Positions 3,089 through 59,185 are shown, numbered from the stretch's first letter. The stretch is 64,000 bases of DNA from an uncultured Candidatus Saccharibacteria bacterium (GCA_964384035.1 CAYLIB010000007.1:18769-82768), one strand, 5' to 3'. Translations and numbers: made by a program. Notes: generated by a model not told the origin, from the letters alone.

Positions 3089-3114
3089 AGACAGAAAATA
3101 ATTGCAATAGAAAA

Positions 3115-17394: not shown

Positions 17395-17413
17395 ACAGAT
17401 CGTAAGGTAGGAT

Positions 17414-17494: not shown

Positions 17495-17514
17495 TTATTT
17501 TTCATCCACATTAT

Positions 17515-25125: not shown

Positions 25126-25129
25126 ATAA

Positions 25130-25315
25130 AAAAAGATCTTTTGAGGTTGTCCCAAAATTTCATTTCAGTCAATTTTTAAAAATCCCGGCTATGAAGTTTC
25201 CAAAAAAAAATTCAACGATATCGCTGAATTTTTTTTTTGAAATCTTCTCGCCCGGAATTTTTTAAAAAATACCCCGAAAGCAAGTTTTGGGACAGCCTCT
25301 TTGGCGTCTTTTTTG
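25130..25315. repeat. 154-bp near-perfect palindrome (imperfect extension to about 185 bp) centred on GATATC at 25217-25222
   Basis: Left arm GGTTGTCCCAAAA...TTTAAAAATCCCGGC...GTTTCCAAAAAAAAATTCAACGATATCG mirrors right arm CGATATCGCTGAATTTTTTTTTTGAAATC...GCCCGGAATTTTTTAAAA...TTTTGGGACAGCC. Confidence 0.5.
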
Positions 25316-29012: not shown

Positions 29013-29276
29013 CGCGCAACTTTAGAACACGGGATCGCATAGTTTGGTACATTTTGGTAGATTTTATTCCCAGTAGCGAATTCCAGGTTGAGGAGTAGGC
29101 TCAGTCCGTCCTAAGCTTTGGAATGTTCCTTTTGCGACTATCCACCGTCCCAGTGCAGACGACCTTAGTAAGAACCGACAAAGTTAGATCTTTTCAAGAG
29201 TCCTTCATCCGCAGTACTTGAAAATCGACCAATTTGTACAAAAATCTGCAATCGATCATAAATAGTAAGAGATTAA
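29013..29276. repeat. About 240-bp intergenic element copy C2 (family with 11728-11969 and 49445-49696), directly upstream of the MurF-like gene
   Basis: Core CTTCATCCGCAGTACTTGAAAATCGACCAATTTGTACAAAAATCTGCAATCGA at 29204-29256 aligns with 11890-11942; further shared blocks upstream; contains sigma70-like TTGTAC-N17-CATAAAT. Confidence 0.45.
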
Positions 29277-42082: not shown

Positions 42083-42167
42083 AGGTTTGAGTATTTTAAC
42101 ACAATGAAAGGTATGGGTATACCAAATAAGAGCATCTTCAGAAGTGCTAAATTTTGTGCTTTACTTG

Positions 42168-43550
42168 TTATTTTTTCTTAACTTTTTGTCCTTCAGGGGT
42201 GTCCATCAAGATCCAGCCCTGGGTTTCTATTTCTTGCCTTAGTTTGTCTGAGGTTTCGAAATCTTTATCTTTTTTTGCTGTTTCTCTTTGTGTTAAGAGC
42301 TGTGCAATTTTTTCTGGGATTGTAAATTCATCAACTGGTGGGTTATTTAAAGACAATCCGAAGACTTGATCGAATTTAAGTAGTGTTTTTAGTTTATTTT
42401 CTTTTGGGTGGTCGGTTGCAAGCATTTTCCAAGTAAGGGCGAGTGCTCCTGGGAGATTTAGGTCTTCGTTAATGAGTTTTAGGAATTCGGTTTCGTATTC
42501 TTCTAGGCCAACTGCTGCTGGGGTAATGTTTTTTGTGAACTCGTAGAGTCTATTTAATGCCGTTTCGCTGGCTTTTAAATTTTCTTCGGTGAAGTTTAGT
42601 TGGGTTCTGTAGTGAGCGGTTAAGCATAGGTAACGGTAAACAAGAGGGTTGAAACCGGTTTCTCTAAGCGAGTCTATTGTTTTTAAATTGCCTTCGCTTT
42701 TACCCATTCGACCACCGTTTATGAGCAGGAATTCACCATGCATCCATATATTGCAGAGAGGTGTACCGAAAGCCGTCTCGCTTTGGGCGATTTCGTTGGT
42801 GTGGTGGGTGCCTATGTGGTCTACGCCACCACAGTGAATGTCGAATGGTTGACCTAGGAGTTTTTTGCTAATAGCAGAGCATTCTATGTGCCAACCGGGA
42901 AAACCTTCGCCCCATGGGGAAGGCCATTTTAGTATATGGTTTTCGAATTTACCTTTTAGGAAAAACCAGAGCACGAAGTCTTGGGGATTTTTCTTTTTTT
43001 CGTCTATTACTACTTCTTCCCTAGCTCCAACTTTTTTTTCGCTTAGGTTCTGCCCACTTAGCTTTCCATAGTCTTGTAGCTTACTTGTGTCAAAATAAAT
43101 AGCGAATTCATCTTGATAAGTGAAACCTTTTTCTTCCAAGAGTTTTATTATTTCTATTTGCTCGGTTATAGATTCTGTTGCGCGGAGGAGTTTGTGTGGG
43201 GGAAGTATGTTTAATTTACTAGCGTCTTCGAAAAATTTACTTTCGTAGAACTTGGCTATCTCAAGAGGGTGTTTGCCTTCTCTTTTAGCACCTTTTTCCA
43301 TTTTATCTTCACCGTCGTCGCCGTCGCCAACTAAATGACCCACGTCGGTTATGTTCATTGCGTGGGTAACTTTTAGGCCGTTGTATTCGAGGGTTCTTCT
43401 AAGTAGGTCTTCGAAGATGTAAGTACGTAAATTGCCAATATGAGCAAAATCGTAAACAGTTGGTCCGCAGGTGTAGAGACTAACTTCGTTTTTTTGAATT
43501 GGGTTTAGTTGCTCTAATTTCCTTCCCAGGGTGTTGAATAGTTTTATCAT
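42168..43550 (-). CDS. cysS: Cysteinyl-tRNA synthetase
   Basis: 460 aa; HIGN (HIGH) and KMSKS-like RMGKSEGN; zinc-binding Cys; typical N-terminus MIKLFNTLGRK...YTCGPTVYD. Confidence 0.9.
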   Translation of the reverse strand: MIKLFNTLGRKLEQLNPIQKNEVSLYTCGPTVYDFAHIGNLRTYIFEDLLRRTLEYNGLKVTHAMNITDVGHLVGDGDDGEDKMEKGAKREGKHPLEIAKFYESKFFEDASKLNILPPHKLLRATESITEQIEIIKLLEEKGFTYQDEFAIYFDTSKLQDYGKLSGQNLSEKKVGAREEVVIDEKKKNPQDFVLWFFLKGKFENHILKWPSPWGEGFPGWHIECSAISKKLLGQPFDIHCGGVDHIGTHHTNEIAQSETAFGTPLCNIWMHGEFLLINGGRMGKSEGNLKTIDSLRETGFNPLVYRYLCLTAHYRTQLNFTEENLKASETALNRLYEFTKNITPAAVGLEEYETEFLKLINEDLNLPGALALTWKMLATDHPKENKLKTLLKFDQVFGLSLNNPPVDEFTIPEKIAQLLTQRETAKKDKDFETSDKLRQEIETQGWILMDTPEGQKVKKK

Positions 43551-44277
43551 CGTGGTTTAGCAGTTCTTTAATCTTTTCCATTGCTTCTTCTGGGGTATCT
43601 ACTAATATGTAGTACTCAGTCTCGGCTTCGGTAACGGTATTATACTGCTTAACTAAGGTTTCATCTATCCAGGCTAGTAGGGGAGTCCAGAATTTTTTAT
43701 CTACCAGAATAATAGGCACTGGTTGGATTTTGTGAGTCTTTACTAGGGTTACAAGTTCAAAAAGTTCATCTAGTGTGCCAAATCCACCAGGAAAAAATAC
43801 GTACATTTGTGAGGCGTAGACTAGCATTACTTTCCTGGTGAAAAAGTATTTGTATTCTGTGGACTTGTTTGCGTATTGGTTGGTGCCCTGTTCGGTTGGG
43901 ATTTTTATGGAGATGCCAACGGAGTGCCCACCGGCATCGTTTGCGCCGCGGTTAGCGGCTTCCATAATACCAGGTCCTCCACCTGTCATGATGGCAAAAC
44001 CTTCTTTGCTAAGCATGGAAGCAAGTTTTTGAGTTTCTTTGTATGAGGGGTGGCTTTCGTCGAATCTGGCTGAGCCGAAGATGGTAGCGGCTTTGGTGAA
44101 TTGTTTTAGGAAGTCAAAACCCATTACAAACTCTGTCATAATTCTAAAAATTCTCCATGGGTCCCGTGGGTCCTCTGCGCTTTCTGTAGGGTCTTCAATT
44201 TCTACACGTGATGTGGTAAGGCTAACTTTCTTTTTTTTATGTTTAGAGCTTTTGGGTAAAGATTTTAAGTAGTTCAT
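43480..44277 (-). CDS. LOG family protein (cytokinin riboside 5'-monophosphate phosphoribohydrolase-like / TIGR00730). The start is possibly the internal Met.
   Basis: GSARxxE...GGGPGIMEAANRGA...PGGFGTLDELFE motifs; the 3' end overlaps the cysS start by 71 nt. Confidence 0.7.
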   Translation of the reverse strand: MNYLKSLPKSSKHKKKKVSLTTSRVEIEDPTESAEDPRDPWRIFRIMTEFVMGFDFLKQFTKAATIFGSARFDESHPSYKETQKLASMLSKEGFAIMTGGGPGIMEAANRGANDAGGHSVGISIKIPTEQGTNQYANKSTEYKYFFTRKVMLVYASQMYVFFPGGFGTLDELFELVTLVKTHKIQPVPIILVDKKFWTPLLAWIDETLVKQYNTVTEAETEYYILVDTPEEAMEKIKELLNHDDKTIQHPGKEIRATKPNSKKRS

Positions 44278-44348
44278 AAAATATTGGATTAATTACGAAG
44301 TGTCATTATATTACTTTGTATGATTATATCATACAATTCGCAGTTTTG

Positions 44349-44381
44349 AAAAACACCTGTGTAGTATAACAGGTGTTTTTT
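44349..44381. terminator. Bidirectional intrinsic terminator
   Basis: AAAAACACCTGT-GTAGTATA-ACAGGTGTTTTTT. Confidence 0.55.
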
Positions 44382-44392
44382 AGCTTCCCATA

Positions 44393-46078
44393 TTAACTTA
44401 TATCAGCCAACTGTTTTACATGTCTTACTTTTAGGTTCTTTAAGTTCGTGTTGGTGTTTTTATTTTCTAGAATTTGTTTTAAGTGATCTGCGCCGATAAA
44501 GTGGGGGAGTAGAACATAGTCGGCTTGGTGGTCGTAAAGTTTTAGGGCTTCGGCTTCGTCTCTTGCTGTGACTATGAATTTAGCTTTTGAGTTAGTGGCT
44601 TCGATGGCTTCTATAAGGGAAAGCGTGTCGAACATATTTGGTAAGGTGGAAATTATTAGTTTAGCTTTTTTAATATTTGCTAAATCTTGAATGTAGGGGT
44701 CAGTAATGTCGCCACATATAACGTTGTATCCTTTAGCTTCAAGTTTTTCTACTATATCGGGATTGAAATCTATAATAACAAACTCTGTTTTTAAATGTGA
44801 GAGTGACTCGATAACTCTACTACCTAGTCGATGAGCGCCTATTAATATGAAGTGGTTTCTAAGGACCGATCTTTTAAGGTTTCTTTCTGCGGATCCTTTT
44901 TTGAAATCTAACCAAGAAATTAAATGTTTTGATTTTTCATAGATTTGACGGGTATGAAGGATTAGGTAAGAAGATACGGCAATGGTAGCGATGCCTGTGA
45001 AAGTGATTATACTTAGTTCATTTTGGGTAATATGGTTAAGGCTTAGCCCTAAAGAAGCAAGGATCAAGCTGAATTCGGAAATTTGACCGACAGTGAATCC
45101 GGTAAAGAATGCAGTTCTGGGCTTAAATCCTAATAGAGCAAGGATGACAAGGACGATTATAGGGTTTCCTATAAGTACGAAAGTTGAAAAAGCTATGCTT
45201 GGGATAACAACATTTTGCCAACCACTGAATATTAATTGGGAACCAAGTACTATAAAGAACAGCATTATAAAGAAATCTCTGAGTGGGGTTATCTTAGCGC
45301 TTATCTCGTAGTGTACTGCAGTGTTTGCGAGAGCTACCCCAGCCAGAAATCCTCCAATTGCTAGGTTGAAACCCACTAATGGTAACGCCGTTAAAGCAGC
45401 AAAGCCGAGAGCCCAGGCAAGAGAAAAAACTAGAAGAAGTTCCTGTGATTTGCTTACAGTTTTTAGGACTAATGGAAAAATAAATTTACTATGGAGGTAA
45501 ATTATTAAAAGTAAGCAAATTAACTTTATTAGTGTGTAAAGAAAGTTTAGAGGTAAGTTGCCTGCGGTGCTGTTTAATCCTTGTAGGAATACGAGAATAA
45601 AGATTGCTACGATATCTTGTATAACAAATATGCCTACAGCTAATTTTCCATATAGAGACTGTAGGTCTTTTTTTTCTGAAAGCAGTTTAACTACAATTAT
45701 TGTGGAAGAGAAAGTGAGAGCAAGACCTAAGTAGATGCTCTTAAGTGAATCAAATCCTAGGAATTTGGCTATGGTAAACCCGAGTAAAGTCGTGACTAGG
45801 ATTTGTAGGACTCCTGCGATACTTGCTGTTTTTCCGATTTTTTTTAGTTCTGTTACGTCTAGCTCTAAGCCCACCATAAATAATAAAAGTGTCACACCTA
45901 TTTCAGATAAGCCTTTAAGAGAGTCTCCTTCAGAAAGTTTGGAGAGACCAAGTGGTCCAAGGATAAGCCCAGTAAGTATATATGCAAGAATACTTGGTTG
46001 TTTAAAAAAACTAACTATAACCGCAATAGCTCCGGCTAGAATTAGTGCTAGTGTAATTTCAAAAAAAATTGATTGCAC
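44393..46078 (-). CDS. Monovalent cation:proton antiporter (CPA2/Kef-type) with C-terminal RCK/TrkA-N domain
   Basis: 561 aa; about 12 TM; Rossmann HFILIGAHRLGSRVIESL in the C-terminal domain. Confidence 0.75.
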   Translation of the reverse strand: MQSIFFEITLALILAGAIAVIVSFFKQPSILAYILTGLILGPLGLSKLSEGDSLKGLSEIGVTLLLFMVGLELDVTELKKIGKTASIAGVLQILVTTLLGFTIAKFLGFDSLKSIYLGLALTFSSTIIVVKLLSEKKDLQSLYGKLAVGIFVIQDIVAIFILVFLQGLNSTAGNLPLNFLYTLIKLICLLLIIYLHSKFIFPLVLKTVSKSQELLLVFSLAWALGFAALTALPLVGFNLAIGGFLAGVALANTAVHYEISAKITPLRDFFIMLFFIVLGSQLIFSGWQNVVIPSIAFSTFVLIGNPIIVLVILALLGFKPRTAFFTGFTVGQISEFSLILASLGLSLNHITQNELSIITFTGIATIAVSSYLILHTRQIYEKSKHLISWLDFKKGSAERNLKRSVLRNHFILIGAHRLGSRVIESLSHLKTEFVIIDFNPDIVEKLEAKGYNVICGDITDPYIQDLANIKKAKLIISTLPNMFDTLSLIEAIEATNSKAKFIVTARDEAEALKLYDHQADYVLLPHFIGADHLKQILENKNTNTNLKNLKVRHVKQLADIS

Positions 46079-46178
46079 GAAAATTGTGATTTTTTGTTTC
46101 TCTAGGTACTTGTATTTTTCAGACTAGACCATTATATCATAAAACGCTATATTTAAGAGATTTGAGACCGGAAATTTT

Positions 46179-46862
46179 ATGGAGGAAAAAATGGAAGAAA
46201 AAGCAGTTTGTAAATGCGGTGTAAATATACATTTAAACGAGCTTAATGGGGCATGTTCTGCCTGTAAGGTGAGATATTGGAAATCTAGGTCGAAACCTGA
46301 ATGTCCCTATGGTCATAAGAGTCAGTATTTGTGGCCAAATCTTCAAGTGATAATAACTCGGATCGTGAATAAGAAAGGTGAAATTCTATATTATTCCTTA
46401 TATTGTGGGATTTGTGATCATCAATACACGGAAGAGCAGATGATTGCAGTTCTTGAGAAATTGAAAAGTCCACAACAAGAATTCATTCATGAAAAAATTT
46501 CGTTGGCACAGTCAATTAATGAGTTGTATTTAGAAACTTTGGCCCCAATATTTAGACCATTGATAAATTTGTTGATTTGGTTGATTGGAGATTTGAAGCT
46601 AGCATTTTCTCAGGTTTATGCTTATGTATACGCTGATAAGCTGAGTCAGGTACAAGTAGAAAATGTCCAGCTAGCATTTTATTCTGAGCCGAATTTTTCA
46701 GGTCAAGAGACGTCGGATGGGATCCCGATAGTTTCTTGGTCTATGCTAGTCGATGAAGGTATGGCTTTCCCGCAGGATAATATATTAGCTACTTCTCGAG
46801 CCGTGGAATCAGCGTCGGTTCATGGGAATGAGATAGAACTTGCTGCAGAAATCCCTGGATAG
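46179..46862 (+). CDS. Hypothetical protein with N-terminal Cys4 zinc-ribbon-like motif
   Basis: CKCGVNIHLNELNGACSACKV; remainder unassigned. Confidence 0.4.
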   Translation: MEEKMEEKAVCKCGVNIHLNELNGACSACKVRYWKSRSKPECPYGHKSQYLWPNLQVIITRIVNKKGEILYYSLYCGICDHQYTEEQMIAVLEKLKSPQQEFIHEKISLAQSINELYLETLAPIFRPLINLLIWLIGDLKLAFSQVYAYVYADKLSQVQVENVQLAFYSEPNFSGQETSDGIPIVSWSMLVDEGMAFPQDNILATSRAVESASVHGNEIELAAEIPG

Positions 46863-46887
46863 GGTTAATTTTTTTTCAAAAAAATAT

Positions 46888-46914
46888 CGCAGATTTTTTA
46901 TCTGCGTTTTTTAT
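46888..46914. terminator. Bidirectional intrinsic terminator
   Basis: CGCAGAT-TTTTT-ATCTGCG followed by TTTTTTATTTT. Confidence 0.5.
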
Positions 46915-47683
46915 TTTCTTTGATAGTTGGATTTGGGCTTGTTTCCCATATGTTAGGCATGGATTTTTCCAAAAGCCAGCTTTCGATATCATCCAATAGG
47001 AAACTTGTAATTTCAATACCAGAGTAGTTTAGGAAGATTTTTCGTGGTTCGGAAATTTTTACCCTAAATCCTACATAGGAGAATTGAGAGTTAAAAGATG
47101 TATTCACTTGAGGTGGCTCACCTTTTTTTCTTGGACTGAATATAGTGACGCTAACAGGAGTTTCAGGGTTAGTCTCAAACTTAATACGTTTAAGAATTTT
47201 TCCTTCACCAGATATTATTAAAGTTTCGTATTCAGGATTGTGTTCGAATCGCTTTCTTCTGAGGATTGTATTCTCGTCAGAAGGGAAGGCTTCGTATTGT
47301 GATCCATTTAGGGTGAAATTGGTAATCCCTTCGCAGTGGCTGATTTTATCAGATGGAATACGAGAGATTAGGTCGCCGACGAAGGTATTTTCCAAGCTAC
47401 TAGAAGTAATGGGGAAGTTTATAGATAAGGTTGCTGTTATGGGGGTAGGCGATGGTGAGGGTAGTAGAATGGGTTTTGTCTGGTCAGTAGAGATTCTTTC
47501 CTGTTCTGCTCTTTCTTTCTCTTTTTTTCTTAATTCAGCAATGAGAGACTTTTCCTTCTCTGCTTGGTAGTGCATGTAAATCATATCGACTTGGTTTGTG
47601 ATGATGCTGGGTGAAGTAAGTGCAATTTGAAGTGTGGTTGCCAGCATTAAAATTAGCGAAAAAAGTCGAAGTTTTGAAAACAT
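46898..47683 (-). CDS. Hypothetical secreted protein (signal peptide, Pro/Ser-rich linker)
   Basis: MFSKLRLFSLILMLATTLQIALTSPS signal-like N-terminus; KEKERAEQER charged segment; no family recognised. Confidence 0.4.
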   Translation of the reverse strand: MFSKLRLFSLILMLATTLQIALTSPSIITNQVDMIYMHYQAEKEKSLIAELRKKEKERAEQERISTDQTKPILLPSPSPTPITATLSINFPITSSSLENTFVGDLISRIPSDKISHCEGITNFTLNGSQYEAFPSDENTILRRKRFEHNPEYETLIISGEGKILKRIKFETNPETPVSVTIFSPRKKGEPPQVNTSFNSQFSYVGFRVKISEPRKIFLNYSGIEITSFLLDDIESWLLEKSMPNIWETSPNPTIKENKKRR

Positions 47684-48019
47684 TATTGTTACCTCCTCAA
47701 GTGTTAAATTGAATTTGTGATAATACGGAAAATTTGGGTTTCTGTCAATAAGTATCGAATATTTATACTGGAGTAATTATTTGACAATTCTTTCCATACT
47801 AGGTATAGTCAGCGGAAGTCTTTTTTAGGTTTGGCCGTTAACAGAAAGGTGCCAAAAGGCAATTTTTGTGGTTTAACTTCAAGATTTCAAAGGTTTATAA
47901 CGTTCACGGATAAGCTTGCGTGGACGTGTTAGAGGGCTTTTTAGGACGCTAAAGAGTTTATCTAGCAAAAAGTAGTCATCAAAAACAAAGATAGAATAGA
48001 GTTTTACGGAGGTTTTGAA

Positions 48020-49444
48020 ATGTTGAGCAATGAATTATTTCTTTTGGTTGATCCTGTCGGTGCATCGCAGCAAGCTATTGATGCTTGGCAGGCATTTAAA
48101 AGTTTGCCGTGGCCACGGGTTGCTGTGCCTGCATCTGTGGTTATTGGTGGGCTTTCTGTTGCCGGTTATTCCTTGGTCCGGAAATTTGGACCTGGTTTTA
48201 TTAACTCGGTAAATAGGAAACAGCAAGAATTTGATTTGGAACATGAGTCGTTTTATTTTATATACGATGAAGTGTTCAGAAACAATCAAATGCTCGCGAA
48301 CCACTTGGTGAATGTGGCGCAGAGTAAGCGCGGTAAAGTTTATTCACCGAATTCGAATCCTGGTATTACGCCTAGCGGACGTCGCTATAAGACGCCGTAT
48401 GCGCCGAGTACCGAAACGACTTTCGTGGAATTCGACTTGGAAACAGGTAAAGAATTCTCGCTTACCAGATCGCAGTCCAACCCTGAATTTATTTCTTGGT
48501 TGGAGACCGAATACCCTGAAGTCTTTAATGTCGGTAAGGCTGATGAAGAGTTAGGGATGATGCGTCCTTATGATCTGTGCTTGTATCTTGGTTTCCCTGA
48601 GAAATCCAAGAGATTTGGTCGTAAGAAGGATCTGCCTACCGCGAAGAAAGTTATGACTGAGTTTCGCAAGGCTACTGGTTTTGCTACCGAGAAGAAGAAG
48701 CCTGTCCAGTTCACCCCAGTGCGCGTTACATTTCGCGCCTGGAAAGAATCCTTTGACGGCAACCAGACTCTGGTTGCGAGTGGCTCGCTTGAAAGCGACT
48801 TCGAGACTTTAAAGACTGCAAATCTCGTGTTTGCTAAAATGGCTCGTGAGATGATGCTCCTGATTGCCCGCAAGAACCGCGTCGAAACTAACCCTGAATT
48901 CCTGAGCAACCCCAAAAGTTGCTTCTACAAGTTCATTTCGGACGAGATCAAGTCCAAAGACAGAATCGAGAAACCTGAGGCCCAAACCTCAGATGGGCTA
49001 ACCCCAGATACAAATCCTTTGAAGGTTAATGATCGAGTTCATGATTACCTTAAGGAGAATGGAACTGTGAGTGACTATACGGCGGGTGCATATGTTATGC
49101 GGGAAGCAAGCGATGTCGATCCTTATCCTAGGGCCTGGTTTGCAGTAAACGATGCCTACCTTGACTACACCGAAGCAGACTTCCTGGAAGCTGCTATGGC
49201 ATACCACGCCGCTACTCGTGAGAGTGACCCACAAGTCCAGAACGATTTAGCTCTATGGCGTTCGTGGGTGCGTGACAGAAAGGCGTACCTGAAAACTGAG
49301 GATACTTACCGGATTACCAGAGATGAGCCAGCAACAAGCAGGATTTGGGCCAGTGTGAGGGAATACTGCGCGAGGAGTCCAATCCTTGGTTATTTCTTTC
49401 GCGATCTGAGTACGGCTGAAGGGGGTCGTGACCTGATCTCGTAA
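48020..49444 (+). CDS. Hypothetical protein (474 aa) with atypical composition (about 52-55% GC, CG-rich Arg codons), candidate horizontally acquired gene
   Basis: The ORF is preceded by GGAGG. Sampled 60-nt windows inside the gene gave 48-57% GC against about 35-43% in neighbouring genes. Arg is encoded by CGC/CGT/CGG here but mostly AGA elsewhere. Confidence 0.5.
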   Translation: MLSNELFLLVDPVGASQQAIDAWQAFKSLPWPRVAVPASVVIGGLSVAGYSLVRKFGPGFINSVNRKQQEFDLEHESFYFIYDEVFRNNQMLANHLVNVAQSKRGKVYSPNSNPGITPSGRRYKTPYAPSTETTFVEFDLETGKEFSLTRSQSNPEFISWLETEYPEVFNVGKADEELGMMRPYDLCLYLGFPEKSKRFGRKKDLPTAKKVMTEFRKATGFATEKKKPVQFTPVRVTFRAWKESFDGNQTLVASGSLESDFETLKTANLVFAKMAREMMLLIARKNRVETNPEFLSNPKSCFYKFISDEIKSKDRIEKPEAQTSDGLTPDTNPLKVNDRVHDYLKENGTVSDYTAGAYVMREASDVDPYPRAWFAVNDAYLDYTEADFLEAAMAYHAATRESDPQVQNDLALWRSWVRDRKAYLKTEDTYRITRDEPATSRIWASVREYCARSPILGYFFRDLSTAEGGRDLIS

Positions 49445-49696
49445 TCGACAATAAGAAAAAAATTGTGCTCAACATAAGTACACACACAATACTTTGGCTG
49501 CATGAACCCCACATGCAGCCTTTTCCTTTGGTTTTGTGTTTTGTGGCTATGGCATCGCACATTTTGCTCCAGCTCGCACGATTTTTTGGATTTTTTTACT
49601 CCATCGTCCCGTCACGGACGCTTGCGTAAAAAAATCGAAAAAGATCGTGCAATCTGAACCAAAATCTGCAATGCGTACTTTTTTCAGGAGAGATAA
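49445..49696. repeat. Intergenic element copy C3 (partial homolog of the approximately 240-bp family) upstream of adk
   Basis: CCATCGTCCCGTCACGGACG matches CCACCGTCCCAGTGCAGACG in C2; ATTTTGCTCCAG matches ATTTTATTCCCAG; AAAATCGAAAAAGATCGTGCAATCTGAACCAAAATCTGCAATGCG core; also the GGCTGCATG...CATGCAGCC hairpin. Confidence 0.4.
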
Positions 49697-50329
49697 GTGT
49701 TGCAAAAAATGGGGGGATGGCTTATTATCGGGGAGATGAAGTTTGATGTGATTTTTTTTATAGGACCTCAAGGGAGTGGGAAGGGGACGCAAGCTCGGCT
49801 GCTAGCCACGAAGCTTGGTTTTTATTTTTGGGAGATGGGTGGAATTCTGAGAGAGATTGGGAAAGAAGATTCCGTATTGGGTAAAAAGATAAAAGTGTTG
49901 CTTGATGCAGGTATTTTGGTTCCTGATCAAGTAATTTTAGAAATATTGGATGAGAAACTCCCAGGTTTAATGAATGAGAAAGGTTTGGTGTTCGATGGTG
50001 TACCTAGGCAGTTGGGACAGGCTGTGCATTTGTTGTCCTTTTTGGAGAAAAGCAATAAGCAGAAAATGGTGACTATCTTTATAGATTTACCTAAGGAAGA
50101 ATCAATCAAGAGATTGTTACTCAGAGCAGAGAAAGAAGGTCGTGTGGATGATAATAAAGAGAGTATAGAAATGCGGTTGTCTATGTATGAGAATCAAACG
50201 GTCCCGGTATTGGATTATCTGAGAGAGAGGACTACTTTTATTACGATTGACGGTTCGCCTGAAGTCGATATGGTTACTGAACAAATAAATTACGCACTTG
50301 AAGGAAGAGAAGACAAAGAATCCAATTAA
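49697..50329 (+). CDS. adk: Adenylate kinase (short form without zinc lid). The true start is probably MKFDVIFFIG near 49736.
   Basis: P-loop GPQGSGKGTQ; NMP-binding GxxLRE; LID region without Cys4. Confidence 0.8.
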   Translation: MLQKMGGWLIIGEMKFDVIFFIGPQGSGKGTQARLLATKLGFYFWEMGGILREIGKEDSVLGKKIKVLLDAGILVPDQVILEILDEKLPGLMNEKGLVFDGVPRQLGQAVHLLSFLEKSNKQKMVTIFIDLPKEESIKRLLLRAEKEGRVDDNKESIEMRLSMYENQTVPVLDYLRERTTFITIDGSPEVDMVTEQINYALEGREDKESN

Positions 50330-50933
50330 CATAATACTGATTGGTGATCCGGCAGCAGGAAAAGCTACTCAAGCTAGTTTTTTAACTAGAAAGTATGACC
50401 TGTATGATTTTGACATGGGCAAAGAGCTGACTGTTCTTAGGTCAAAAGATAAGCAGGTAGATGAGGTGTTAAAACAGAACACAGATAAGGGTAATTTGTC
50501 TCCTACTCAAATTGTAAGACAAATATTGAAAGATAAAATTAGTGAGTGCCCAAAGGAAAAGGGGATATTATTTGATGGCCATCCCAAAATGCTTGGTGAG
50601 GCTAAGCTTGTAAGTAAATTACTCAGAGAGCAAGGCAGAAGTAATCCCATAGTAATTTATTTGAGTATCCCTACCAAGGAAACTATAACCCGGATGCATA
50701 AAAGAGTTGGATATTTTGAAGGTAAGTTTGGGAAAAGAGCAGATGATTCTGTCGAGGCGTTGAAAAATAGAGTGGCATACTATAGGAAAAATGTCTCTCA
50801 GGTTATCGATTTTTTTAAACAACAGTACCAATATAAAAAGGTAAGTGGTTTAGGTAATAAGTCTGAAGTAAAGCTACGTATTTTTTTGACTATTGATAAA
50901 TATTTAGAGAAAGTTAAAAATACCTCTAAATAA
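50298..50933 (+). CDS. Second adenylate-kinase-family nucleoside monophosphate kinase (tandem paralog), TTG start
   Basis: P-loop GDPAAGKATQ; same domain order as adk; overlaps the upstream adk by about 30 nt. Confidence 0.6.
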   Translation: MKEEKTKNPINIILIGDPAAGKATQASFLTRKYDLYDFDMGKELTVLRSKDKQVDEVLKQNTDKGNLSPTQIVRQILKDKISECPKEKGILFDGHPKMLGEAKLVSKLLREQGRSNPIVIYLSIPTKETITRMHKRVGYFEGKFGKRADDSVEALKNRVAYYRKNVSQVIDFFKQQYQYKKVSGLGNKSEVKLRIFLTIDKYLEKVKNTSK

Positions 50934-50948
50934 CTTTAGAGGTATTAT
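50917..50948 (+). terminator. Hairpin overlapping the stop of the adk paralog, 5 nt before map
   Basis: AATACCTCTAAA-TAAC-TTTAGAGGTATT followed by ATTTTGT. Confidence 0.4.
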
Positions 50949-50953
50949 TTTGT

Positions 50954-51721
50954 ATGCCAGACAAGCAAGGGTTTATTAAAACTTCAGAGGAGATAAATAT
51001 TATCGGAGAGGGTGGAAAGATAATGAGGGATATTTTAAGTATGCTTTCTGAGAAATCTATCCCTGGAATTTCTACTTATGAGTTAAATAAGATTGCTTGG
51101 AAAGAAATAGAATCCTGTGGGGGTAGGCCGAGTTTTTTGGGTTATGGGCCACGAAATAATCCATTTCCAGCAGCGTTATGTACTTCTTTAAATGATGTTG
51201 TGGTGCATGGTATCCCATCTGAAAAAGTGATTTTGAAGGAAGGTGATATATTGGGTTTAGATATTGGTATGGAATATAAAGGGTTATATACGGATACGGC
51301 GATTACTGTAATGGTTGGGAAAGTGAAAGATCGTGTCAAAGAGTTGGTATTAACCACACAGGAGGCACTTAACAAAGCGATTGATAAGGCTAGAGTGGGT
51401 AATAGAATTGGTGATATCTCTGCTGTCATATTTGAAACTGCAAAACACTCAGGGTTTACGGTGGTAAGAGAGCTAGTTGGTCATGGTGTGGGTTATCAGG
51501 TTCATGAAGACCCTGCTGTGCCCTGTTATGGACGTCCAGGAACGGGACCCGAGTTATTCGAGGGTATGGTTTTAGCTATTGAACCAATGGTGTGCGAAAA
51601 GAGTCCGAGGATTTACGTAGATAGGGATGGATGGACGATTAGAACAGATGATGGGGGTAGGGCCGCGCATTTTGAACACACAATTGCTATAACAAAAAGT
51701 GGACCTAGGATTCTTACTTAA
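50954..51721 (+). CDS. map: Methionine aminopeptidase type I
   Basis: 255 aa; the His/Asp/Glu metal-ligand pattern of the pita-bread fold (DIxxLDIG, HGVG, EPM). Confidence 0.9.
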   Translation: MPDKQGFIKTSEEINIIGEGGKIMRDILSMLSEKSIPGISTYELNKIAWKEIESCGGRPSFLGYGPRNNPFPAALCTSLNDVVVHGIPSEKVILKEGDILGLDIGMEYKGLYTDTAITVMVGKVKDRVKELVLTTQEALNKAIDKARVGNRIGDISAVIFETAKHSGFTVVRELVGHGVGYQVHEDPAVPCYGRPGTGPELFEGMVLAIEPMVCEKSPRIYVDRDGWTIRTDDGGRAAHFEHTIAITKSGPRILT

Positions 51722-51747
51722 GATACAGAAAATAAAAAAACAAGTAG

Positions 51748-52182
51748 TCAATGTACTTGTTGTTTTTTTTGATTGTTTAAAATAGATTTACGCCAAGTAT
51801 AGAAGAATGTAAACCCGCATGTGAGATAAAGTAGAATCCCCAAGATTATTAATCTTTTAGCCTGAACTTCTAAGAAGTATACGGATTCTTCCAGGTCATT
51901 TAGCGTATGTTTTTTCTGAAAAGGATCTTGATTGCTTTTTATACCCATTAACTGGGTTTCAAGCTCGGTTTCCTTTAATGTTAACTGATCGATTCTGTTT
52001 TCTAGAAATCTGATTTTGTTGTACGCGAGAGTGAGTTTTTTCTCTAGTTTTTGAATTTTTTGTCTAGCAGTTAATTTGGGGCGTGCGCTAATTTGTGGGG
52101 CAAGAGCGCATAAAAGTAAACACATTACAATAAACCATTTTGATTTCATCGGGGGTTCCTCATGTTTGATTTTGCCGTACAA
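51748..52182 (-). CDS. Hypothetical protein with N-terminal signal/TM and coiled coil, C-terminal TM
   Basis: ORF only. Confidence 0.35.
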   Translation of the reverse strand: MYGKIKHEEPPMKSKWFIVMCLLLCALAPQISARPKLTARQKIQKLEKKLTLAYNKIRFLENRIDQLTLKETELETQLMGIKSNQDPFQKKHTLNDLEESVYFLEVQAKRLIILGILLYLTCGFTFFYTWRKSILNNQKKQQVH

Positions 52183-52284
52183 GATTAAAGATTATGCCTT
52201 TTTTATGATGAATGCGTCAAGTATGTGCTATAATTTTCTTTGTATTAACACTCAGTATTAAGAGTAAAAACAAATCATATTTAG

Positions 52285-52659
52285 ATGCAAAATTTACAAG
52301 ACGTTTTTCAAAGAATGCGCGCGACTAAGCGTGAACAGAAACAAATAACTAATATGTACAAGGATTCACTCGAGTCCTCTTCGGAATATCGAGATGTTTT
52401 AGAGAAACTGCGTGGTTTTAAGCTTAGAAAACAGCAAATTGAGGAAGAGGTTAAGGCTGAATTGGGAAATGATTTAGCAAAATTAGAGGCTTTAAAAAAG
52501 GATGTGCAGGCAGATAAAGAATTGCTAGCTGACTTAGCCATTAATAAGTTAATGTCTGGTGAAACTGTGAGTGTAGAGGATGAAGACAAAAATCCGTATG
52601 AGCCGGTGTTTAGTGTTAAATTTAAGAAAACAAACGAGGTTAGACAAGAAGGGGTTTAA
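52285..52659 (+). CDS. Hypothetical coiled-coil protein (124 aa)
   Basis: ORF only; charged heptad-like sequence. Confidence 0.35.
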   Translation: MQNLQDVFQRMRATKREQKQITNMYKDSLESSSEYRDVLEKLRGFKLRKQQIEEEVKAELGNDLAKLEALKKDVQADKELLADLAINKLMSGETVSVEDEDKNPYEPVFSVKFKKTNEVRQEGV

Positions 52660-52664
52660 AGAAT

Positions 52665-53072
52665 ATGTCAGGTAATGTACCAGTAAGTTTTGCTTATTTG
52701 GAGAGAGACGGGAGGGTTCTACTTGTCCAAGAAGGGGGGAGACAGCCTTATGGCTTGTGGTGTTTTCCTGGTGGGCATGTAGATCCTGGTGAGACACCTG
52801 ATATTGCTTGTGTAAGAGAGACCAAGGAAGAAACTGGTTACGAAGTGGAAATTGTAAAACCATTGCTTATTCGGACTGTAAGTGGGTTGGAGTACAAAGG
52901 TCCTTTTTCTGAAAATGATAAACAGATTGATATTCATTTATTTGAAGTAAGGATAGTAGGAGGCGATTTGATAGGTTTGAATAATGAGTTATTAGATGTT
53001 GCTTGGTTTGCGAAAGATCATGCGATTAAACTTCCGCATAGGTGGGAGTGGCTAAAAGAGATAATCGGTTAG
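52665..53072 (+). CDS. NUDIX hydrolase
   Basis: Nudix box GGHVDPGETPDIACVRETKEETG. Confidence 0.75.
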   Translation: MSGNVPVSFAYLERDGRVLLVQEGGRQPYGLWCFPGGHVDPGETPDIACVRETKEETGYEVEIVKPLLIRTVSGLEYKGPFSENDKQIDIHLFEVRIVGGDLIGLNNELLDVAWFAKDHAIKLPHRWEWLKEIIG

Positions 53073-53164
53073 TTTACAGGAAATGTAAAAGTGTATATAA
53101 TTGTCACCGGCGCTAACTTAGGTTAGCGCTATTAAGTTTTTGTCGAATTTTTTCTGGAGGAAAT

Positions 53165-54454
53165 ATGAAAAGACCGAAACCGAATTTCAAGAATACACTT
53201 GGGATTATTATTGGTGGTGGAGAGGGTAACAGGCTTTGGCCTATAACAGCTAGCGTCCCTAAGCCCGCTGTGCCCGTTGGGGCAGACTATGTAATGCTTG
53301 ATTTTCCAATATCTTCCTTGTTGAATTCTGGGTTTGGTAAAATAGTGCTGATCGCTCAGCATTTACCACATGTGATTACTGAACATGTAAATTCTTATCC
53401 AGCAATTTTTGCATCGGGTAGAGGGGAGTTCGGTTCAGTCCGCATGCCTTTCTATCAACAAGATCAGTTTTTGTCTGACCAGCATGCGCTTAGAAGGGTG
53501 CATGAGTTTTTGGAGTTAGATGGAATTGATTATGTTATTTTGCTCAACGCGGATCAGATTTGGGCGTTGGATTTTGAACAAGTTTTTGATGAAATGTTCA
53601 AAGTGGGTGCTCATGCTGCGTTGGTGTATAAGAAAGTTGGGATTGAGGAAGCAAGGAAAAAATTGGGAGTAGTAAAGATGTCAGAGAATGGTCTGGTTGA
53701 GTCTATGGCTGAGAAACCAGACAATCCATACCCTGATTCGCTTGATCCTGCACAAACTTGTGCGAATACTGCAATTTACTGCATGGACAAGCAAGCATAC
53801 ATTGAGATGATAGCTCATATAGCCGATGCTGATCCTGGGCCAAACTTGAGTAATACCGGCATACGGTGGTTGATAGGGCAGAAGGAAGTGCTTGGCTATG
53901 ATATTACTAGTAATGTTATTGATAATTCTGCTGAATTCCAGCAGGGTTTCTGGTTTGATGCCGGAACTCATGAGACTTATCTTGAAGTACAAAAATTACT
54001 AGCAGTGAAAGGAGGAAGGCATTTCAATTTGTATAATGACAAATGGCCGATTTACCGAGGAGTGCCTGGGAATGTTTATCCTGGTCCCGTGAAGCTGGAC
54101 GCTGCTATTTGTGAGGCTAGTTTACTTGGAGCTGGTGTGATTTTGGCCCAAGAAACTGAGCTTTATAATTCTGTTTTGAGTCCGGGTACAAGAGTCTTTG
54201 ATAAAAGCACTCTGGAAACGGTGGTAACTCTAAGAAATTGCCAGATAGGGGCAGGTTCTGTTCTGAAAAAGGTAATTCTTGGTGAGGGGGTATGTGTACC
54301 ACCAGGGACAGTCCTGGGTGGTGGATATTACCCTGATGGTACGCTGGATTTTGATGAGGCGATTGTTCGCCTGCAGTCTGGAAAACGACCAGTACCCGTA
54401 CCCATAAAGACAGAAAGTGGTATTCTGGTTATACCAGCAAGGTGGAAGTTTTGA
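53165..54454 (+). CDS. Sugar-1-phosphate nucleotidyltransferase, GlgC-like (glucose-1-phosphate adenylyltransferase family) with C-terminal left-handed beta-helix
   Basis: 429 aa; GIIIGGGEGNRLWPIT...KPAVPVG N-terminal motif; LLNADQIW; C-terminal hexapeptide-repeat-like region. Confidence 0.6.
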   Translation: MKRPKPNFKNTLGIIIGGGEGNRLWPITASVPKPAVPVGADYVMLDFPISSLLNSGFGKIVLIAQHLPHVITEHVNSYPAIFASGRGEFGSVRMPFYQQDQFLSDQHALRRVHEFLELDGIDYVILLNADQIWALDFEQVFDEMFKVGAHAALVYKKVGIEEARKKLGVVKMSENGLVESMAEKPDNPYPDSLDPAQTCANTAIYCMDKQAYIEMIAHIADADPGPNLSNTGIRWLIGQKEVLGYDITSNVIDNSAEFQQGFWFDAGTHETYLEVQKLLAVKGGRHFNLYNDKWPIYRGVPGNVYPGPVKLDAAICEASLLGAGVILAQETELYNSVLSPGTRVFDKSTLETVVTLRNCQIGAGSVLKKVILGEGVCVPPGTVLGGGYYPDGTLDFDEAIVRLQSGKRPVPVPIKTESGILVIPARWKF

Positions 54455-54581
54455 TCCGCCTTTTTTTATTAGTATTTAATATTCTAGCTATTGTTTTTTC
54501 TTTGAAAAATAGATACCCTAGAATTGTTGTAAGTTTTCCGACGAGTATTATGGATTCTCACAAGTTTGCGAGGAGGACGCA

Positions 54582-55106
54582 ATGCAGGATCAAAAAAATA
54601 CAAAAAGAAAACCCAGAATGTTTCGTGTGGTGGAGACATTGGTAAATAATAAAACAATAAAATTAATTGTCCCTTGCAAAAAAAATACGGAGGAAAATTT
54701 TTCTAATAGGGAAGGATTTGGGGTTTATATTCACTTGGATGCTAGAATAAGGAAAGCCTTGTGCATGTATTCAAAACTTCAGAAGGTAAAAGCGAGAATT
54801 TTCAATCTATCATTTTCGAATATCCCTGAATATGAAATTGTTTTGGAGCCACCACCCGATAATCCTTTTATGTTTACCGAGGTTGATATTCATTTTTTCC
54901 CATGTGGGTCTTTGTTTCAAGAGATAGTAGAGGTAGTAGCTGGTGATCCTAAATTGGAGAAGAAGGAAAGTTCTAAAAAGAAATCGACCGCATTGGGTAT
55001 CAGAAAAACTCCGGGTCCGTTTTTCGTTGGTGGGAAAGGTGATGGCCCAACAGGGATCGATGATCTAAAAAAAGCGGCTCAAGATTATTACGATGATTTA
55101 ACATAG
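54582..55106 (+). CDS. Hypothetical protein (174 aa)
   Basis: ORF only. Confidence 0.35.
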   Translation: MQDQKNTKRKPRMFRVVETLVNNKTIKLIVPCKKNTEENFSNREGFGVYIHLDARIRKALCMYSKLQKVKARIFNLSFSNIPEYEIVLEPPPDNPFMFTEVDIHFFPCGSLFQEIVEVVAGDPKLEKKESSKKKSTALGIRKTPGPFFVGGKGDGPTGIDDLKKAAQDYYDDLT

Positions 55107-55206
55107 CATGTGGAAAAGTGCTATGTTTTTTATATTAGGAGTATGGTATATTTAGGTGTACAAAGGTATACCTATTTAGAGCCTAGTATGATAATTTAGT
55201 TAATTT

Positions 55207-56343
55207 GTGCTTATGGAACCATTAGCAAATAGAATTAGACCATTAGGTTTAGATAAATATTATGGACAGGAGCATTTGGTGGGTGAGGATGGACCAATTC
55301 GTAAGGCTATATTAGAAAAGCATATTTTTAGTTTTATTCTATGGGGACCTCCTGGTACGGGTAAGACAACTCTAGCGAAGATATATGCTAATTCTGTTGG
55401 GGCAGAGATGTTTACACTTTCGGCTGTTTCGGCTGGAAAAGATCAGGTTAGACAAATATTAGAACTCCCGACTTTTTTAGGTAAGACAAAAATATTATTT
55501 TTAGACGAAATTCACAGGTTTAATAAAGCTCAGCAAGATTTTTTATTACCTTTTGTTGAGTCAGGGCAAATATATTTAATAGGCGCAACGACAGAAAATC
55601 CTAGCTTTGAGGTTGTTCCGGCTTTGTTATCGAGATGTAGGGTTTTTACTTTGAAAGCTTTAGATTCGGATTCGCTACGAAAAATTATTTTAAATACAGA
55701 GATACCGGTAGATGAAGACGCGATGAACTTGCTGTTGGGACAATCGGGAGGGGATGCGAGGCAAGCAATCGGAATTTTAGAAAATGTTGGTAAATTGTAT
55801 CCGAGAGTGACCCTGGAGACACTCAAAAAAAGCATGCAGTCCAGTGTGCTTCGTTACGATAAAAATGGAGAGGAGCATTACAATACTATTTCGGCTTTTA
55901 TAAAAAGTATGCGTGCTAGTCAAGTTGATGCTGCGCTTTATTACTTAGCAAGAATGACCGAAGCTCATGAGGATCCGCTTTTTATTGCGAGAAGGATGAT
56001 TATTTTCGCATCTGAAGACATTGGAATGGAAGATCCACAAGCTCTTCAGGTAGCTAATGCGGTTTTTCAGGCATGTCAGATAATTGGATACCCTGAATGC
56101 TCAATAACCTTGGCGGAGGGGGTTACTTATCTTGCTCTTGCCCCGAAGAGCCGTGCGGTTTACGACGCGATTATGGAGGCTAAAATGGATGCAGTTAGGT
56201 TGGGGAATTTAGAGATACCTTTAGAAATTCGAAATGCACCTACAAAATTAATGAAGGAGTTAGGGTATGGAAATGGATATGAGATGTATTCACAGAGTGA
56301 TTTCTTACCAAAAGAACTCAAAAGGAAAAAGTATTACAAATAA
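55207..56343 (+). CDS. rarA: Replication-associated recombination protein A (AAA+ ATPase)
   Basis: 378 aa; Walker [10 protein letters not shown]; Walker [11 protein letters not shown]; MgsA C-terminal domain. Confidence 0.85.
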
Positions 56344-58788: not shown

Positions 58789-58821
58789 AGTTTAATTTTA
58801 GAAGTTAATAAAAATTAAAAC

Positions 58822-59185
58822 CCAGAATTTATTTACCAAAAGTTTGGTAGATAAATTCTGGGGTCTAGTTGTTTGCCAGACGGTTCCAACCCAGATAACT
58901 ATTTTATTAAATTTGTAATCGCTCGCCGAGTGGTAGTCGGGTCTTTGTGATAGGTATATTAGAATATTAAAAGTTTGACCGAAGGAAGTCAAACAAGAGA
59001 AAAAGCCGGCCCGAAATATTTCGAGTCGGCTTTTCCTGTGATCACATTTATAGGTTAATGGTTACGCCAATTTGAGCGGCTGCTTGGGGCAAGCGGAAAT
59101 GCCTAATCTCAACTGACGCCGATTTTTCGAAAATGCCCCAGAGGAGTAGTAGTTGAACCAGGGGCTTTGGGTTCAATTGGCTACC
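58822..59185 (-). promoter_or_regulatory. T-box riboswitch leader of thrS (antiterminator/terminator pair; candidate Stem I with Thr ACU specifier). The 5' boundary is approximate.
   Basis: Minus-sense RNA. A1 UCUGGG (plus 58890-58895) pairs with CCCAGA (58857-58862). The 8-nt bulge UUGGAACC (58882-58889) is equivalent to the T-box UGGNACC. A2 is GUCUGG-CAAACAA-CUAGAC. A 19-bp terminator stem (58822-58861) plus a U-rich tract lies 33 nt before the thrS AUG, and its 5' strand includes CCCAGA. Candidate Stem I at 59130-59181: GAGGAG-[CGGUAGCCAA]-UUGAACC-loop-GGUUCAA-[CUACUA]-CUCCUC. Confidence 0.5.

Follow-up and report, generated by a model that had tools for sequence, protein, structure and literature searches.

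A GC-rich orphan gene within a genus-restricted block of a Patescibacteria genome, probably acquired before two species split

We describe a block of three orphan genes, orf227, orf261 and orf474, that lies between the gene of a CPA2/Kef-type potassium antiporter and the adenylate kinase gene adk1 of an uncultured, ultra-small Patescibacteria (CPR) bacterium of ~38% GC. The window, that is, the whole stretch of DNA analysed, is 64,000 nucleotides long. We favour, with somewhat more confidence than doubt, the explanation that the block is an accessory insert limited to one genus and placed in the divergent spacer that separates the Kef-type antiporter gene from the adk-adk-map cluster. On this view, one of its genes, orf474, probably came from a donor of higher GC content before two species split; it has since been passed on by vertical descent and shuffled by homologous recombination. 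The block is an ordinary kind of accessory-gene insert and not a recent mobile island. The case for transfer draws on sequence composition and on a single outgroup, and no donor or homolog occurs among the collections searched.

Results

The three open reading frames (ORFs) of the original prediction are present between the antiporter gene and adk (Table 1), and its statement that they lack recognisable families is borne out by searches of Pfam, PHROGs, PADLOC and NCBIfam, which gave zero family matches for all three; the anti-phage defence models of PADLOC matched none of the proteins at E<=1. A canonical Shine-Dalgarno sequence, GGAGG, precedes each ORF, and sites that resemble promoters and terminators surround them. 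All three are real genes that look expressed.

Table 1. Coordinates of the block, its neighbours and its putative signals, counted from the first letter of the window.
Feature	Coordinates	Strand	Details
CPA2/Kef-type antiporter (Na_H_Exchanger + TrkA_N)	44393-46078	-	left neighbour of the block
Kef start/orf227 divergent spacer	46079-46178	.	left block junction relative to the L005 arrangement; 96% identity in L002
orf227, Cys-rich (zinc-ribbon-like) orphan protein	46179-46862	+	227 aa
Bidirectional intrinsic-terminator-like hairpin	46888-46906	.	between convergent orf227 and orf261; detected on both strands
orf261, orphan protein with N-terminal hydrophobic signal or anchor segment	46898-47683	-	261 aa
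Sigma-70-like promoter of orf261, TTGACA-17-TATTAT	47720-47748	-	11/12 matches; hexamers unaltered in L002
Sigma-70-like promoter of orf474, TTGACA-17-TATAGT	47781-47809	+	11/12 matches; in L002, hexamers unaltered and spacer with 2 changes
orf474 5′ leader, predicted structured	47816-48019	+	~200 nt; transcription start inferred; GGAGG 8 nt before the ATG
orf474, GC-rich codon-atypical orphan gene	48020-49444	+	474 aa; GC 0.474, GC3 0.488
Intrinsic-terminator-like hairpin, 9-bp stem and T-rich tail	49496-49520	+	52 nt past the orf474 stop codon
Long imperfect palindrome, 123-nt hairpin	49552-49674	.	flanked by the orf474 terminator and the ribosome-binding site of adk1; 80% self-complementary
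Copy of ~41-nt spacer motif (…AAAATCGA…AAAATCTGCAAT)	49630-49675	+	further copies at 11900-11942 and 29214-29255
Adenylate kinase (adk1)	49697-50329	+	right neighbour of the block

The two shorter genes resemble their host in composition. The GC3 of orf227 is 0.338, which is host-like, and that of orf261 is 0.347; compared with L002, the corresponding locus of the sister species, their dN/dS values are 0.25 (at a dS of 0.09) and 0.27, respectively, and the spacer between them (46863-46897) shows 100% identity. Each forms a single cluster in the protein cluster search, which for orf227 is a single 90% cluster among 5.8 billion clusters. The true start of orf227 is probably the ATG at 46191, for a protein of 223 aa; a GGAGG lies 6 nt upstream of this ATG, and the orf227 of relatives is called at 223 aa. 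Its predicted zinc ribbon is plausible, with seven cysteines (C11xC13, C26xxC29, C42 and C76xxC79) that are all kept in the ortholog, as is the predicted secretion of orf261, which carries a hydrophobic segment at residues ~5-28 and a GGAGG 7 nt ahead of its ATG. We regard orf227 and orf261 as compositionally native; they would either have been gained much earlier or be native orphans.

The third gene, orf474, was compared with its 91%-identical ortholog. The ortholog contains no stops, dN/dS is 0.10, and the mismatches fall 26/18/102 on the three codon positions, with third positions holding 102 of the 146 differences. Because of this low dN/dS, the excess of third-position differences and the intact frame of the ortholog, we read orf474 as a real protein-coding gene. 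The protein has one predicted transmembrane helix at residues ~34-53, followed by a ~420-aa domain without an assigned fold, and it is probably membrane-anchored. Because the positive charges come after the helix, we infer that the ~420-residue body probably faces the cytoplasm. The anchor, together with the neighbouring signal-anchored orf261, would lead us to guess at a membrane-associated or cell-envelope accessory role. AlphaFold2 models of the full-length protein (pLDDT 33) and of residues 230-474 (pLDDT 40) are both unusable, and the alignment of the three known alleles, 97% identical by column, is too shallow to help structure prediction. The 5′ leader of the gene has a fold z-score of -4.7 and no Rfam match; identity with L002 is ~92% in the leader and 82% in the 5′ half of the ORF that follows it.

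The composition of orf474 differs sharply from that of its surroundings. It has a GC content of 47.4%, where the mean is 37.6%, and a GC3 of 48.8%, where the other ORFs average 31.8%; of the 55 ORFs of the window it is the clearest outlier (mean GC3 of the others 0.318, sd 0.039; z = 4.35), and the two 1-kb windows that cover it (0.461 and 0.451 GC) are the highest of 64, the next being 0.422. The codon choice differs in the same gene, with arginine encoded by CGN in 66% of cases (26% in the rest of the window) and by AGA in 19% (46%), leucine by CTG in 25% (5%), isoleucine by ATA in 7% (40%) and lysine by AAG in 58% (28%). The protein is rich in arginine (z = +1.9) and alanine and poor in isoleucine (3.0% vs 7.8% elsewhere; z = -2.4). 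Windowed GC, GC3 and codon analysis thus upholds the prediction that this gene is a CGN-rich outlier, although the GC content of 52-55% given for it was overstated; a single 300-nt sub-window of the region reaches 51.7%. By dinucleotide signature, orf474 ranks 26th of 132 windows and is no outlier. Codon-usage likelihood favours Patescibacteria loci of 42-48% GC over the host model (-1.19 vs -1.26 log-likelihood per codon), which as an indication of the donor is a generic preference for genomes of 42-48% GC. Because orf227 and orf261 are ordinary in GC3, the compositional island extends over ~47900-49850, that is, orf474 and its 3′ spacer; the original prediction had extended it to the entire 3.6-kb block, which as a whole is not atypical, as one gene of the three is.

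All contigs of the two species-level lineages known, drawn from at least eight independent samples, carry the whole block in synteny, and both of its junctions are reproduced in independent JGI, NCBI and Logan assemblies. Samples in which the family occurs include JGI 3300005002, 3300005039 and 3300006899, and SRR12487045, SRR13287426/7, SRR10132685 and DRR235453. In the window and in L002, the three ORFs occupy the spacer between Kef and adk1. The only more distant syntenic relative, L005 (50% GC), has the gene order map-adk2-adk1, a 239-bp spacer and Kef-cysS-dnaB-recR, without the block. Because Kef and adk1 are directly adjacent there, L005 fits a gain of the block in the present lineage. 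This relative is distant (52-72% amino acid identity); it no longer shows synteny to the right of map, and LOG is missing between Kef and cysS. Scans of genome and metagenome contigs with Kef found no intermediate relatives between 97% and 52% identity and no other locus with Kef next to adk. Between the two species, the dS of orf474 is 0.42 overall, compared with 0.16-0.68 in the housekeeping neighbours, and the ortholog is equally GC-rich (GC3 0.515). The block is thus older than the 'recent acquisition' that had been proposed, given its presence in both lineages, a dS like that of its neighbours and this GC-rich ortholog. Syntenic orthologs in relatives had been named as evidence against an island, and such orthologs exist within the genus, but not at the family level, where L005 lacks the block.

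Divergence along orf474 is mosaic. In comparison with L002, dS is 1.09 in the 5′ half, where dN/dS is 0.065, and 0.09 in the 3′ half, and the L001 allele is patchy; by this pattern, the locus is clearly recombining. A continuous low-divergence tract of 1.1 kb (48700-49800) spans coding sequence and spacer, and the spacer at 49445-49696 is 99.2% identical with L002. RNA-level constraint on this spacer was considered and dropped, because the map of mismatches is that of a low-divergence recombination tract that includes coding sequence. The lesson for method is that a spacer conserved at 99% can mimic a constrained RNA and yet sit in a 1.1-kb recombination tract.

The 256-nt spacer stretch at 49445-49700 has a fold z-score of -6.7 and contains a long palindrome; several similar palindromes are present in other spacers. 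The spacer motif that overlaps it has a 12-mer core, AAAATCTGCAAT, with three exact plus-strand copies in the window, and spacer alignments stretch the similarity to 32-41 nt. The copy in this spacer is presumably the repeat 'C3' that had been said to adjoin the right edge of the block, as it does. Rfam models at gathering thresholds matched nothing in the entire window. A reading of the GC-rich region and its spacers as noncoding RNA was also rejected: in a scan of 47600-49800 by E-value, the only models to match were generic plant miRNA precursors, which hit the long hairpin on either strand and scored far under the threshold (35.7 vs 180 bits).

The three proteins have no detectable homolog outside the genus in ~15 billion proteins, so that their description as taxonomically restricted orphans holds for all of them. 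For orf474, the searches returned no more than its own 90% cluster from 5.8 billion clusters and from 1.84 billion representative proteins, and nothing from PDB sequences (best E-value 0.11, which is noise). The phage or plasmid source that had been suggested receives no support: PHROGs gave 0 hits for the block proteins, and orf474 had no match in the 50,697 phage records of INPHARED by blastn and tblastn, in IMG/VR, in JGI metagenome contigs or, as sole query by tblastn at E<=1, among the plasmids of PLSDB. Pfam, PHROGs and NCBIfam identified no integrase, transposase or other mobility gene among the three ORFs, and the neighbours are housekeeping genes; the whole window contains neither tRNA nor tmRNA genes, and the direct repeats around the block are short and at chance level. 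A classical mobile island is thus not supported, given the lack of an integrase, a tRNA and flanking direct repeats. Of the marks of a genomic island, atypical composition is confined to orf474 and its 3′ spacer, and sporadic presence among close relatives is not observed, as the block is absent only from the family-level relative. A family shared by orf474 and a 451-aa orphan specific to L002 was a further candidate; BLASTP gave E = 0.004 over ~63-84 residues, 13 of 1000 shuffles scored as high, and the relationship is unconfirmed.

Discussion

According to the explanation that we prefer, the GC content, GC3, codon choice and isoleucine-poor, arginine- and alanine-rich make-up of orf474 point to its evolution in another genome, with a GC content of roughly 45-55%. 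From there it was probably passed to the shared ancestor of both known species, by a vehicle that has left no remaining trace, and it has since been inherited vertically, under purifying selection, and swapped between lineages by homologous recombination. Native and de novo prokaryotic orphans normally match or fall below the GC content of their host (PMC11293555), and given this trend, an orphan that is GC-richer than its host indicates an external origin. In this phylum, genomic islands and single-gene transfers, the latter mostly between Patescibacteria, are reported to be common (Gios et al., 2025; PMC12455944). Some observations speak against a transfer. Both alleles of orf474 still have a GC3 of ~0.49-0.52 after a dS of ~0.4 or more, over which some amelioration would be expected, and this persistence could mean that the GC content is maintained by something other than history. 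The missing mobility genes, tRNA and flanking repeats, and the ordinary dinucleotide signature, likewise count against it.

We consider it unlikely, although it is the strongest of the alternatives, that orf474 is a native orphan that arose in this lineage by extreme divergence or de novo and whose high GC content is maintained in some other way, for example through GC-biased gene conversion in a segment prone to recombination or through mRNA/codon selection. Native and de novo orphans typically match or undershoot the GC content of their host (PMC11293555), and gene conversion or expression selection accounts poorly for a shift that combines a GC3 excess of 17 points with low isoleucine and high arginine and alanine. 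L21, the window's sole gene for a ribosomal protein, has a GC3 of 0.284, which gives no hint that high expression goes with high GC3, and other recombining segments (orf227, orf261 and cysS) are not GC-rich. Such an origin would nevertheless agree with the lack of homologs anywhere searched, possible donors included, with the host-like dinucleotide signature, with recombination at the locus (the contrast in dS between its halves and the patchy L001 allele), with high GC in both alleles despite substantial divergence, and with the many other ORFs of the genome that also lack families. Less probable still is an ancestral block that the L005 lineage has lost, with no insertion here. Streamlined CPR genomes lose genes readily, and L005 is distant and differs in other respects, including the missing LOG and the absence of anything syntenic to the right of map. 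However, with no homolog outside the genus in ~15 billion proteins, an ancestral block must have been lost everywhere else or have diverged beyond recognition, and a deletion leaves the atypical composition of orf474 unexplained.

The original reading, in which a phage, plasmid or other mobile element inserted recently and left the block as its remnant, now appears very improbable. The atypical composition of orf474 and the position of the block in a spacer between conserved genes are what such a remnant would show, and the sister genome has another GC-rich orphan (the 451-aa protein) at a different spacer, which suggests a shared pool of GC-richer incoming DNA. Against this stand the lack of matches in PHROGs, the phage records, IMG/VR and PLSDB, the lack of an integrase or transposase, a tRNA and flanking direct repeats, and the fixed, syntenic presence of the block in both species at a dS like that of the flanking genes, which argues that it is not recent. 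Finally, orf474 could be an artefact, either a chance ORF over a GC-rich noncoding RNA or a chimeric or contaminant segment of the assembly. GC-rich segments of AT-rich genomes are often structured RNAs, and both flanking spacers fold well (z-scores of -4.7 and -6.7). However, the bias toward third-position differences and the dN/dS of 0.10 show protein-level selection, no Rfam hit was obtained, and both junctions recur in independent assemblies, and we therefore give this idea almost no credence.

With acquisition before the species split as the preferred reading, the locus illustrates, cleanly and within clear bounds, how lineage-specific genes enter the streamlined genomes of CPR/Patescibacteria at spacers that separate conserved housekeeping genes, and it suggests that compositional atypicality can last long after acquisition. 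With orf474, the CPR 'dark matter' grows by one strongly constrained protein; the gene reveals no new mechanism and renders no long-standing question testable. A bolder proposal, which we think improbable, is that orf474 is the founding member of a protein family so far invisible in ~15 billion predicted proteins, membrane-anchored and held by strong purifying selection in a CPR lineage of episymbionts. The unusually deep allelic divergence of its N-terminal half (dS ~1.1 vs 0.1-0.7 elsewhere) and the patchy exchange between lineages would then be the pattern of long-term balancing selection, for example on a determinant of host or phage interaction. If this were true, the GC-rich 451-aa orphan that sits at another spacer in the sister species would come from the same pool of incoming genes, as its second member.

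Among known systems, the genomic islands and single-gene transfers of groundwater Patescibacteria (Gios et al., 2025; PMC12455944) come from the same phylum. A small insert in a streamlined genome agrees with their reported exchange mostly between Patescibacteria, and a relative of 42-50% GC as donor would match the codon fit of orf474. Those events were called from donor homology or by island predictors, whereas orf474 has no homolog from which a donor or function could be named. The closest likeness in kind is to the compositionally atypical ORFans, or 'genomic islets' (Lawrence & Ochman on amelioration; Daubin & Ochman, 2004; Cortez et al., 2009; as discussed in PMC11293555), with which orf474 shares a restricted distribution, atypical GC, GC3 and codons, a position between genes that are adjacent in a relative, and purifying selection. 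However, classic acquired ORFans and virus-like orphans are AT-richer than their hosts, whereas orf474 is GC-richer; furthermore, the present block has no mobility gene, tRNA or repeat, is fixed in both known species rather than sporadic, and is atypical in only one gene of three. In comparison with the native and de novo species-specific orphans (Vakirlis & Kupczok, 2024; PMC11293555), orf227 and orf261 are alike in their host-like GC, lack of homologs, short length and weaker constraint (dN/dS of ~0.25-0.27). In contrast, orf474, with its length of 474 aa, its dN/dS of 0.10 and a GC3 that is 17 points above that of the host, is the opposite of the de novo trend.

Results

Gene content and distribution of the block

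ORF calling confirmed three ORFs at the predicted positions (see table), which are flanked on the left by the gene of a CPA2/Kef-type antiporter (Na_H_Exchanger and TrkA_N) and on the right by two tandem adenylate-kinase paralogs (adk1 and adk2) and a methionine aminopeptidase gene (map). GGAGG lies 6-8 nt upstream of the start in all three block genes, and its placement at orf227 indicates that translation begins at the second ATG (46191), in agreement with the 223-aa calls in relatives.

Features of the block between the Kef gene and adk1
Feature	Coordinates	Strand	Basis or position
orf227	46179-46862	+	ORF call
orf261	46898-47683	-	ORF call
orf474	48020-49444	+	ORF call
Terminator-like hairpin	49496-49520		3' of the orf474 stop codon

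None of the three proteins has a match in Pfam, PHROGs, PADLOC or NCBIfam; family-less ORFs are common in this genome (4 of 10 large ORFs taken from other parts of the window). No homolog of orf474 beyond its own 90% cluster (3 sequences) was found among 5.8 billion clusters or, by full HMMER, among 1.84 billion 50% representatives, and searches for it in PDB sequences, phage records, plasmid records, IMG/VR and JGI metagenome contigs added nothing. The cluster search returned only the own clusters of orf227 and orf261, which have no match in phage records. The three ORFs are therefore orphans, as originally predicted.

Two lineages at the species level account for the members of the orf474 cluster. 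That of the window is identical to JGI contigs from 3300005002, 3300005039 and 3300006899 and to SRR12487045, and DRR235453 is near-identical to it; the second lineage, L002, includes SRR13287426/7 and SRR10132685. The order Kef, orf227, orf261, orf474, adk1, adk2, map is found in every contig recovered; therefore, an assembly artefact is ruled out as the source of the junctions, and the block is fixed in the genus.

The L002 genome (GCA_964434195.1, contig CAYSUI010000004.1) is collinear with window positions 42165-56291 at ~90.7% DNA identity and carries the three block genes in the same order. Its orf474 ortholog (473 aa, 91% identical) is free of stop codons, the 146 nucleotide differences are distributed as 26/18/102 over codon positions 1/2/3, and dN/dS is 0.10, compared with 0.25 for orf227, in which 7/7 Cys are conserved, and 0.27 for orf261. 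Thus, orf474 is a genuine gene. A single TM helix is predicted at residues ~34-53, and the basic residues that follow it suggest that the body of the protein would face the cytoplasm. Two AlphaFold runs gave unusable models, with pLDDT 33 and 40.

Two back-to-back sigma-70-like promoters (11/12 matches) lie in the 336 nt that separate orf261 from orf474; their hexamers are identical in L002, whereas the surrounding positions vary. The predicted orf474 promoter implies a leader of ~200 nt (fold z = -4.7). Between orf227 and orf261 lies a hairpin that is terminator-like in both directions.

Composition

The window has ~38% GC (mean 0.376 over 55 ORFs). With a GC of 0.474 and a GC3 of 0.488, against a mean GC3 of 0.318 (sd 0.039) in the other ORFs (z = 4.35), orf474 is the clearest single compositional outlier in the window, and the two GC-richest of the 64 1-kb windows are those over it. 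The outlier status originally predicted is thus correct, but the accompanying figure of 52-55% GC is reached in one 300-nt sub-window only. Relative to the rest of the window, orf474 favors CGN (66% vs. 26%) over AGA (19% vs. 46%) for Arg, CTG for Leu (25% vs. 5%), TCG for Ser (28% vs. 9%) and AAG for Lys (58% vs. 28%), and it avoids ATA for Ile (7% vs. 40%) and GTA for Val (6% vs. 34%). The protein is low in Ile (3.0% vs. 7.8%) and high in Arg and Ala. This codon usage fits loci of Patescibacteria with 42-48% GC better than the host, and the dinucleotide signature is within the normal range. The raised GC spans ~47900 to ~49850, including the 3' spacer of orf474. Because orf227 and orf261 are of ordinary, host-like composition, the compositional island comprises orf474 and not the whole block.

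Other features of the window

A spacer motif of ~41 nt (…AAAATCGAC…ACAAAATCTGCAAT), probably the intergenic repeat family of the original prediction, occurs in three + strand copies (11900-11942, 29214-29255 and 49630-49675), the last two of which end ~25 nt upstream of a start codon. The 12-mer core is present in 3 exact copies, or in 5 when one mismatch is allowed (1.1 expected), and the motif is possibly a promoter or operator element common to these sites. Several spacers contain long imperfect palindromes (hairpins of 60-190 nt) of no Rfam family (16182-16244, 17412-17498, 25129-25314, 49552-49674 and 58810-58873), so the one adjacent to adk1 (49552-49674) is not unique. Two spacers, 2932-3114 and 15474-15618, have GC contents of 0.47 and 0.49 (0.16-0.35 in most spacers), and 2305-2404 and 2991-3088 are related to each other over 100 nt (67% identity). 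These spacers are candidates for structured RNAs that lack annotation; at gathering thresholds, Rfam gave no hit in the window. No tRNA, tmRNA or Rfam family was detected across the 64 kb.

The adk paralogs (49697-50329 and 50298-50933) overlap by 32 nt, are ~30% identical to each other and keep their tandem arrangement in L005, a distant relative. Candidate starts of adk1 are GTG 49697 (good SD), ATG 49709 and ATG 49737; its first ~13 residues are not conserved in L005. A LOG/'lysine decarboxylase'-family gene (43480-44277) between Kef and cysS overlaps the longest cysS ORF by 71 nt, and the cysS start is therefore probably further downstream; relatives have cysS calls of 396 aa. Most genes are on the + strand, and nearly all 1-kb windows show a strong and uniform positive GC skew, so that cumulative skew climbs almost monotonically; the whole window is probably part of a single replichore.

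Between cysS and dnaB, L002 has an additional 1.5 kb; the corresponding spacer of the window is 85 nt long (42083-42167). This insert holds a second GC-rich orphan (L002 15538-16893, - strand; 451 aa; GC 0.447, GC3 0.429), which has no match among families or phages and sits in another spacer than orf474. It resembles the C-terminus of orf474 only marginally (BLASTP E = 0.004; shuffle p ~0.013).

Discussion

We consider the block to be a well-supported lineage-specific insert. A search with the Kef protein against one genome per GTDB species found a single further syntenic relative, L005 (CAYJQY010000001.1; 50% GC), whose proteins share 52-72% identity with their counterparts in the window. 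Its order is map-adk2-adk1, a 239-bp spacer, and Kef-cysS-dnaB-recR; the block is absent, and the LOG-family gene is likewise missing. Within the 239-bp spacer, just upstream of Kef, a GC-rich stretch (9860-10000) appears self-complementary. Genome and metagenome collections contained no intermediate relatives and no other loci with Kef adjoining adk. With a single, distant outgroup, the block could instead have been lost in L005. However, the conserved flanks on both sides and the lack of homologs elsewhere favor a gain in the lineage of the window.

The dS of orf474 relative to L002 (0.42) is within the range of its neighbors (0.16-0.68), and the L002 allele is equally GC-rich (GC 0.485, GC3 0.515). 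Therefore, the common ancestor already had the gene in its GC-rich form, which contradicts the recent acquisition originally proposed. A phage or plasmid source is likewise unsupported, with no match to the three genes in phage records or to orf474 in plasmid records and IMG/VR. Neither integrase, transposase, tRNA nor flanking repeat occurs at the block, and a test for the classical island features (mobility genes, tRNA or att sites, sporadic distribution) found none of them. What stands of the transfer reading is a lineage-specific insert in which a horizontal origin of orf474 is somewhat probable.

Divergence between the window and L002 is ~3% over 46100-47500, ~19% over 48000-48700 (dS 1.09, dN/dS 0.065) and ~2% over 48700-49800 (dS 0.09), and identity in the rest of the collinear region ranges from 96% down to 75%. 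Overall, tracts extend from ~2-3% to ~19-25% divergence (dS 0.09 to 1.09). Between the DRR235453 allele and the window there are 8 substitutions, clustered within 110 nt (48427-48536), and at 5 of these sites DRR235453 has the L002 state. This mosaic indicates ongoing, frequent homologous recombination between related CPR populations. The 99.2% identity of spacer 49445-49696 is accounted for by a low-divergence tract, and RNA-level constraint is not needed to explain it.

Horizontally acquired ORFans are characterized by atypical composition, restricted taxonomy and insertion between conserved neighbors. Across 4,644 gut species surveyed, orphans mostly had the GC content of their host, and candidates of virus-like or de novo type had less GC (PMC11293555). 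Unlike these host-like or GC-poorer orphans (PMC11293555), orf474 is GC-richer than its host, and because it is also long and strongly constrained, these trends speak against a native or de novo origin. The short, host-like and less constrained orf227 and orf261 fit among genes that are native or have long been ameliorated. For Patescibacteria, genomic islands and transfers of single genes are reported to be frequent, with most of the exchange inside the phylum (PMC12455944). The block is a further instance of a feature already known.
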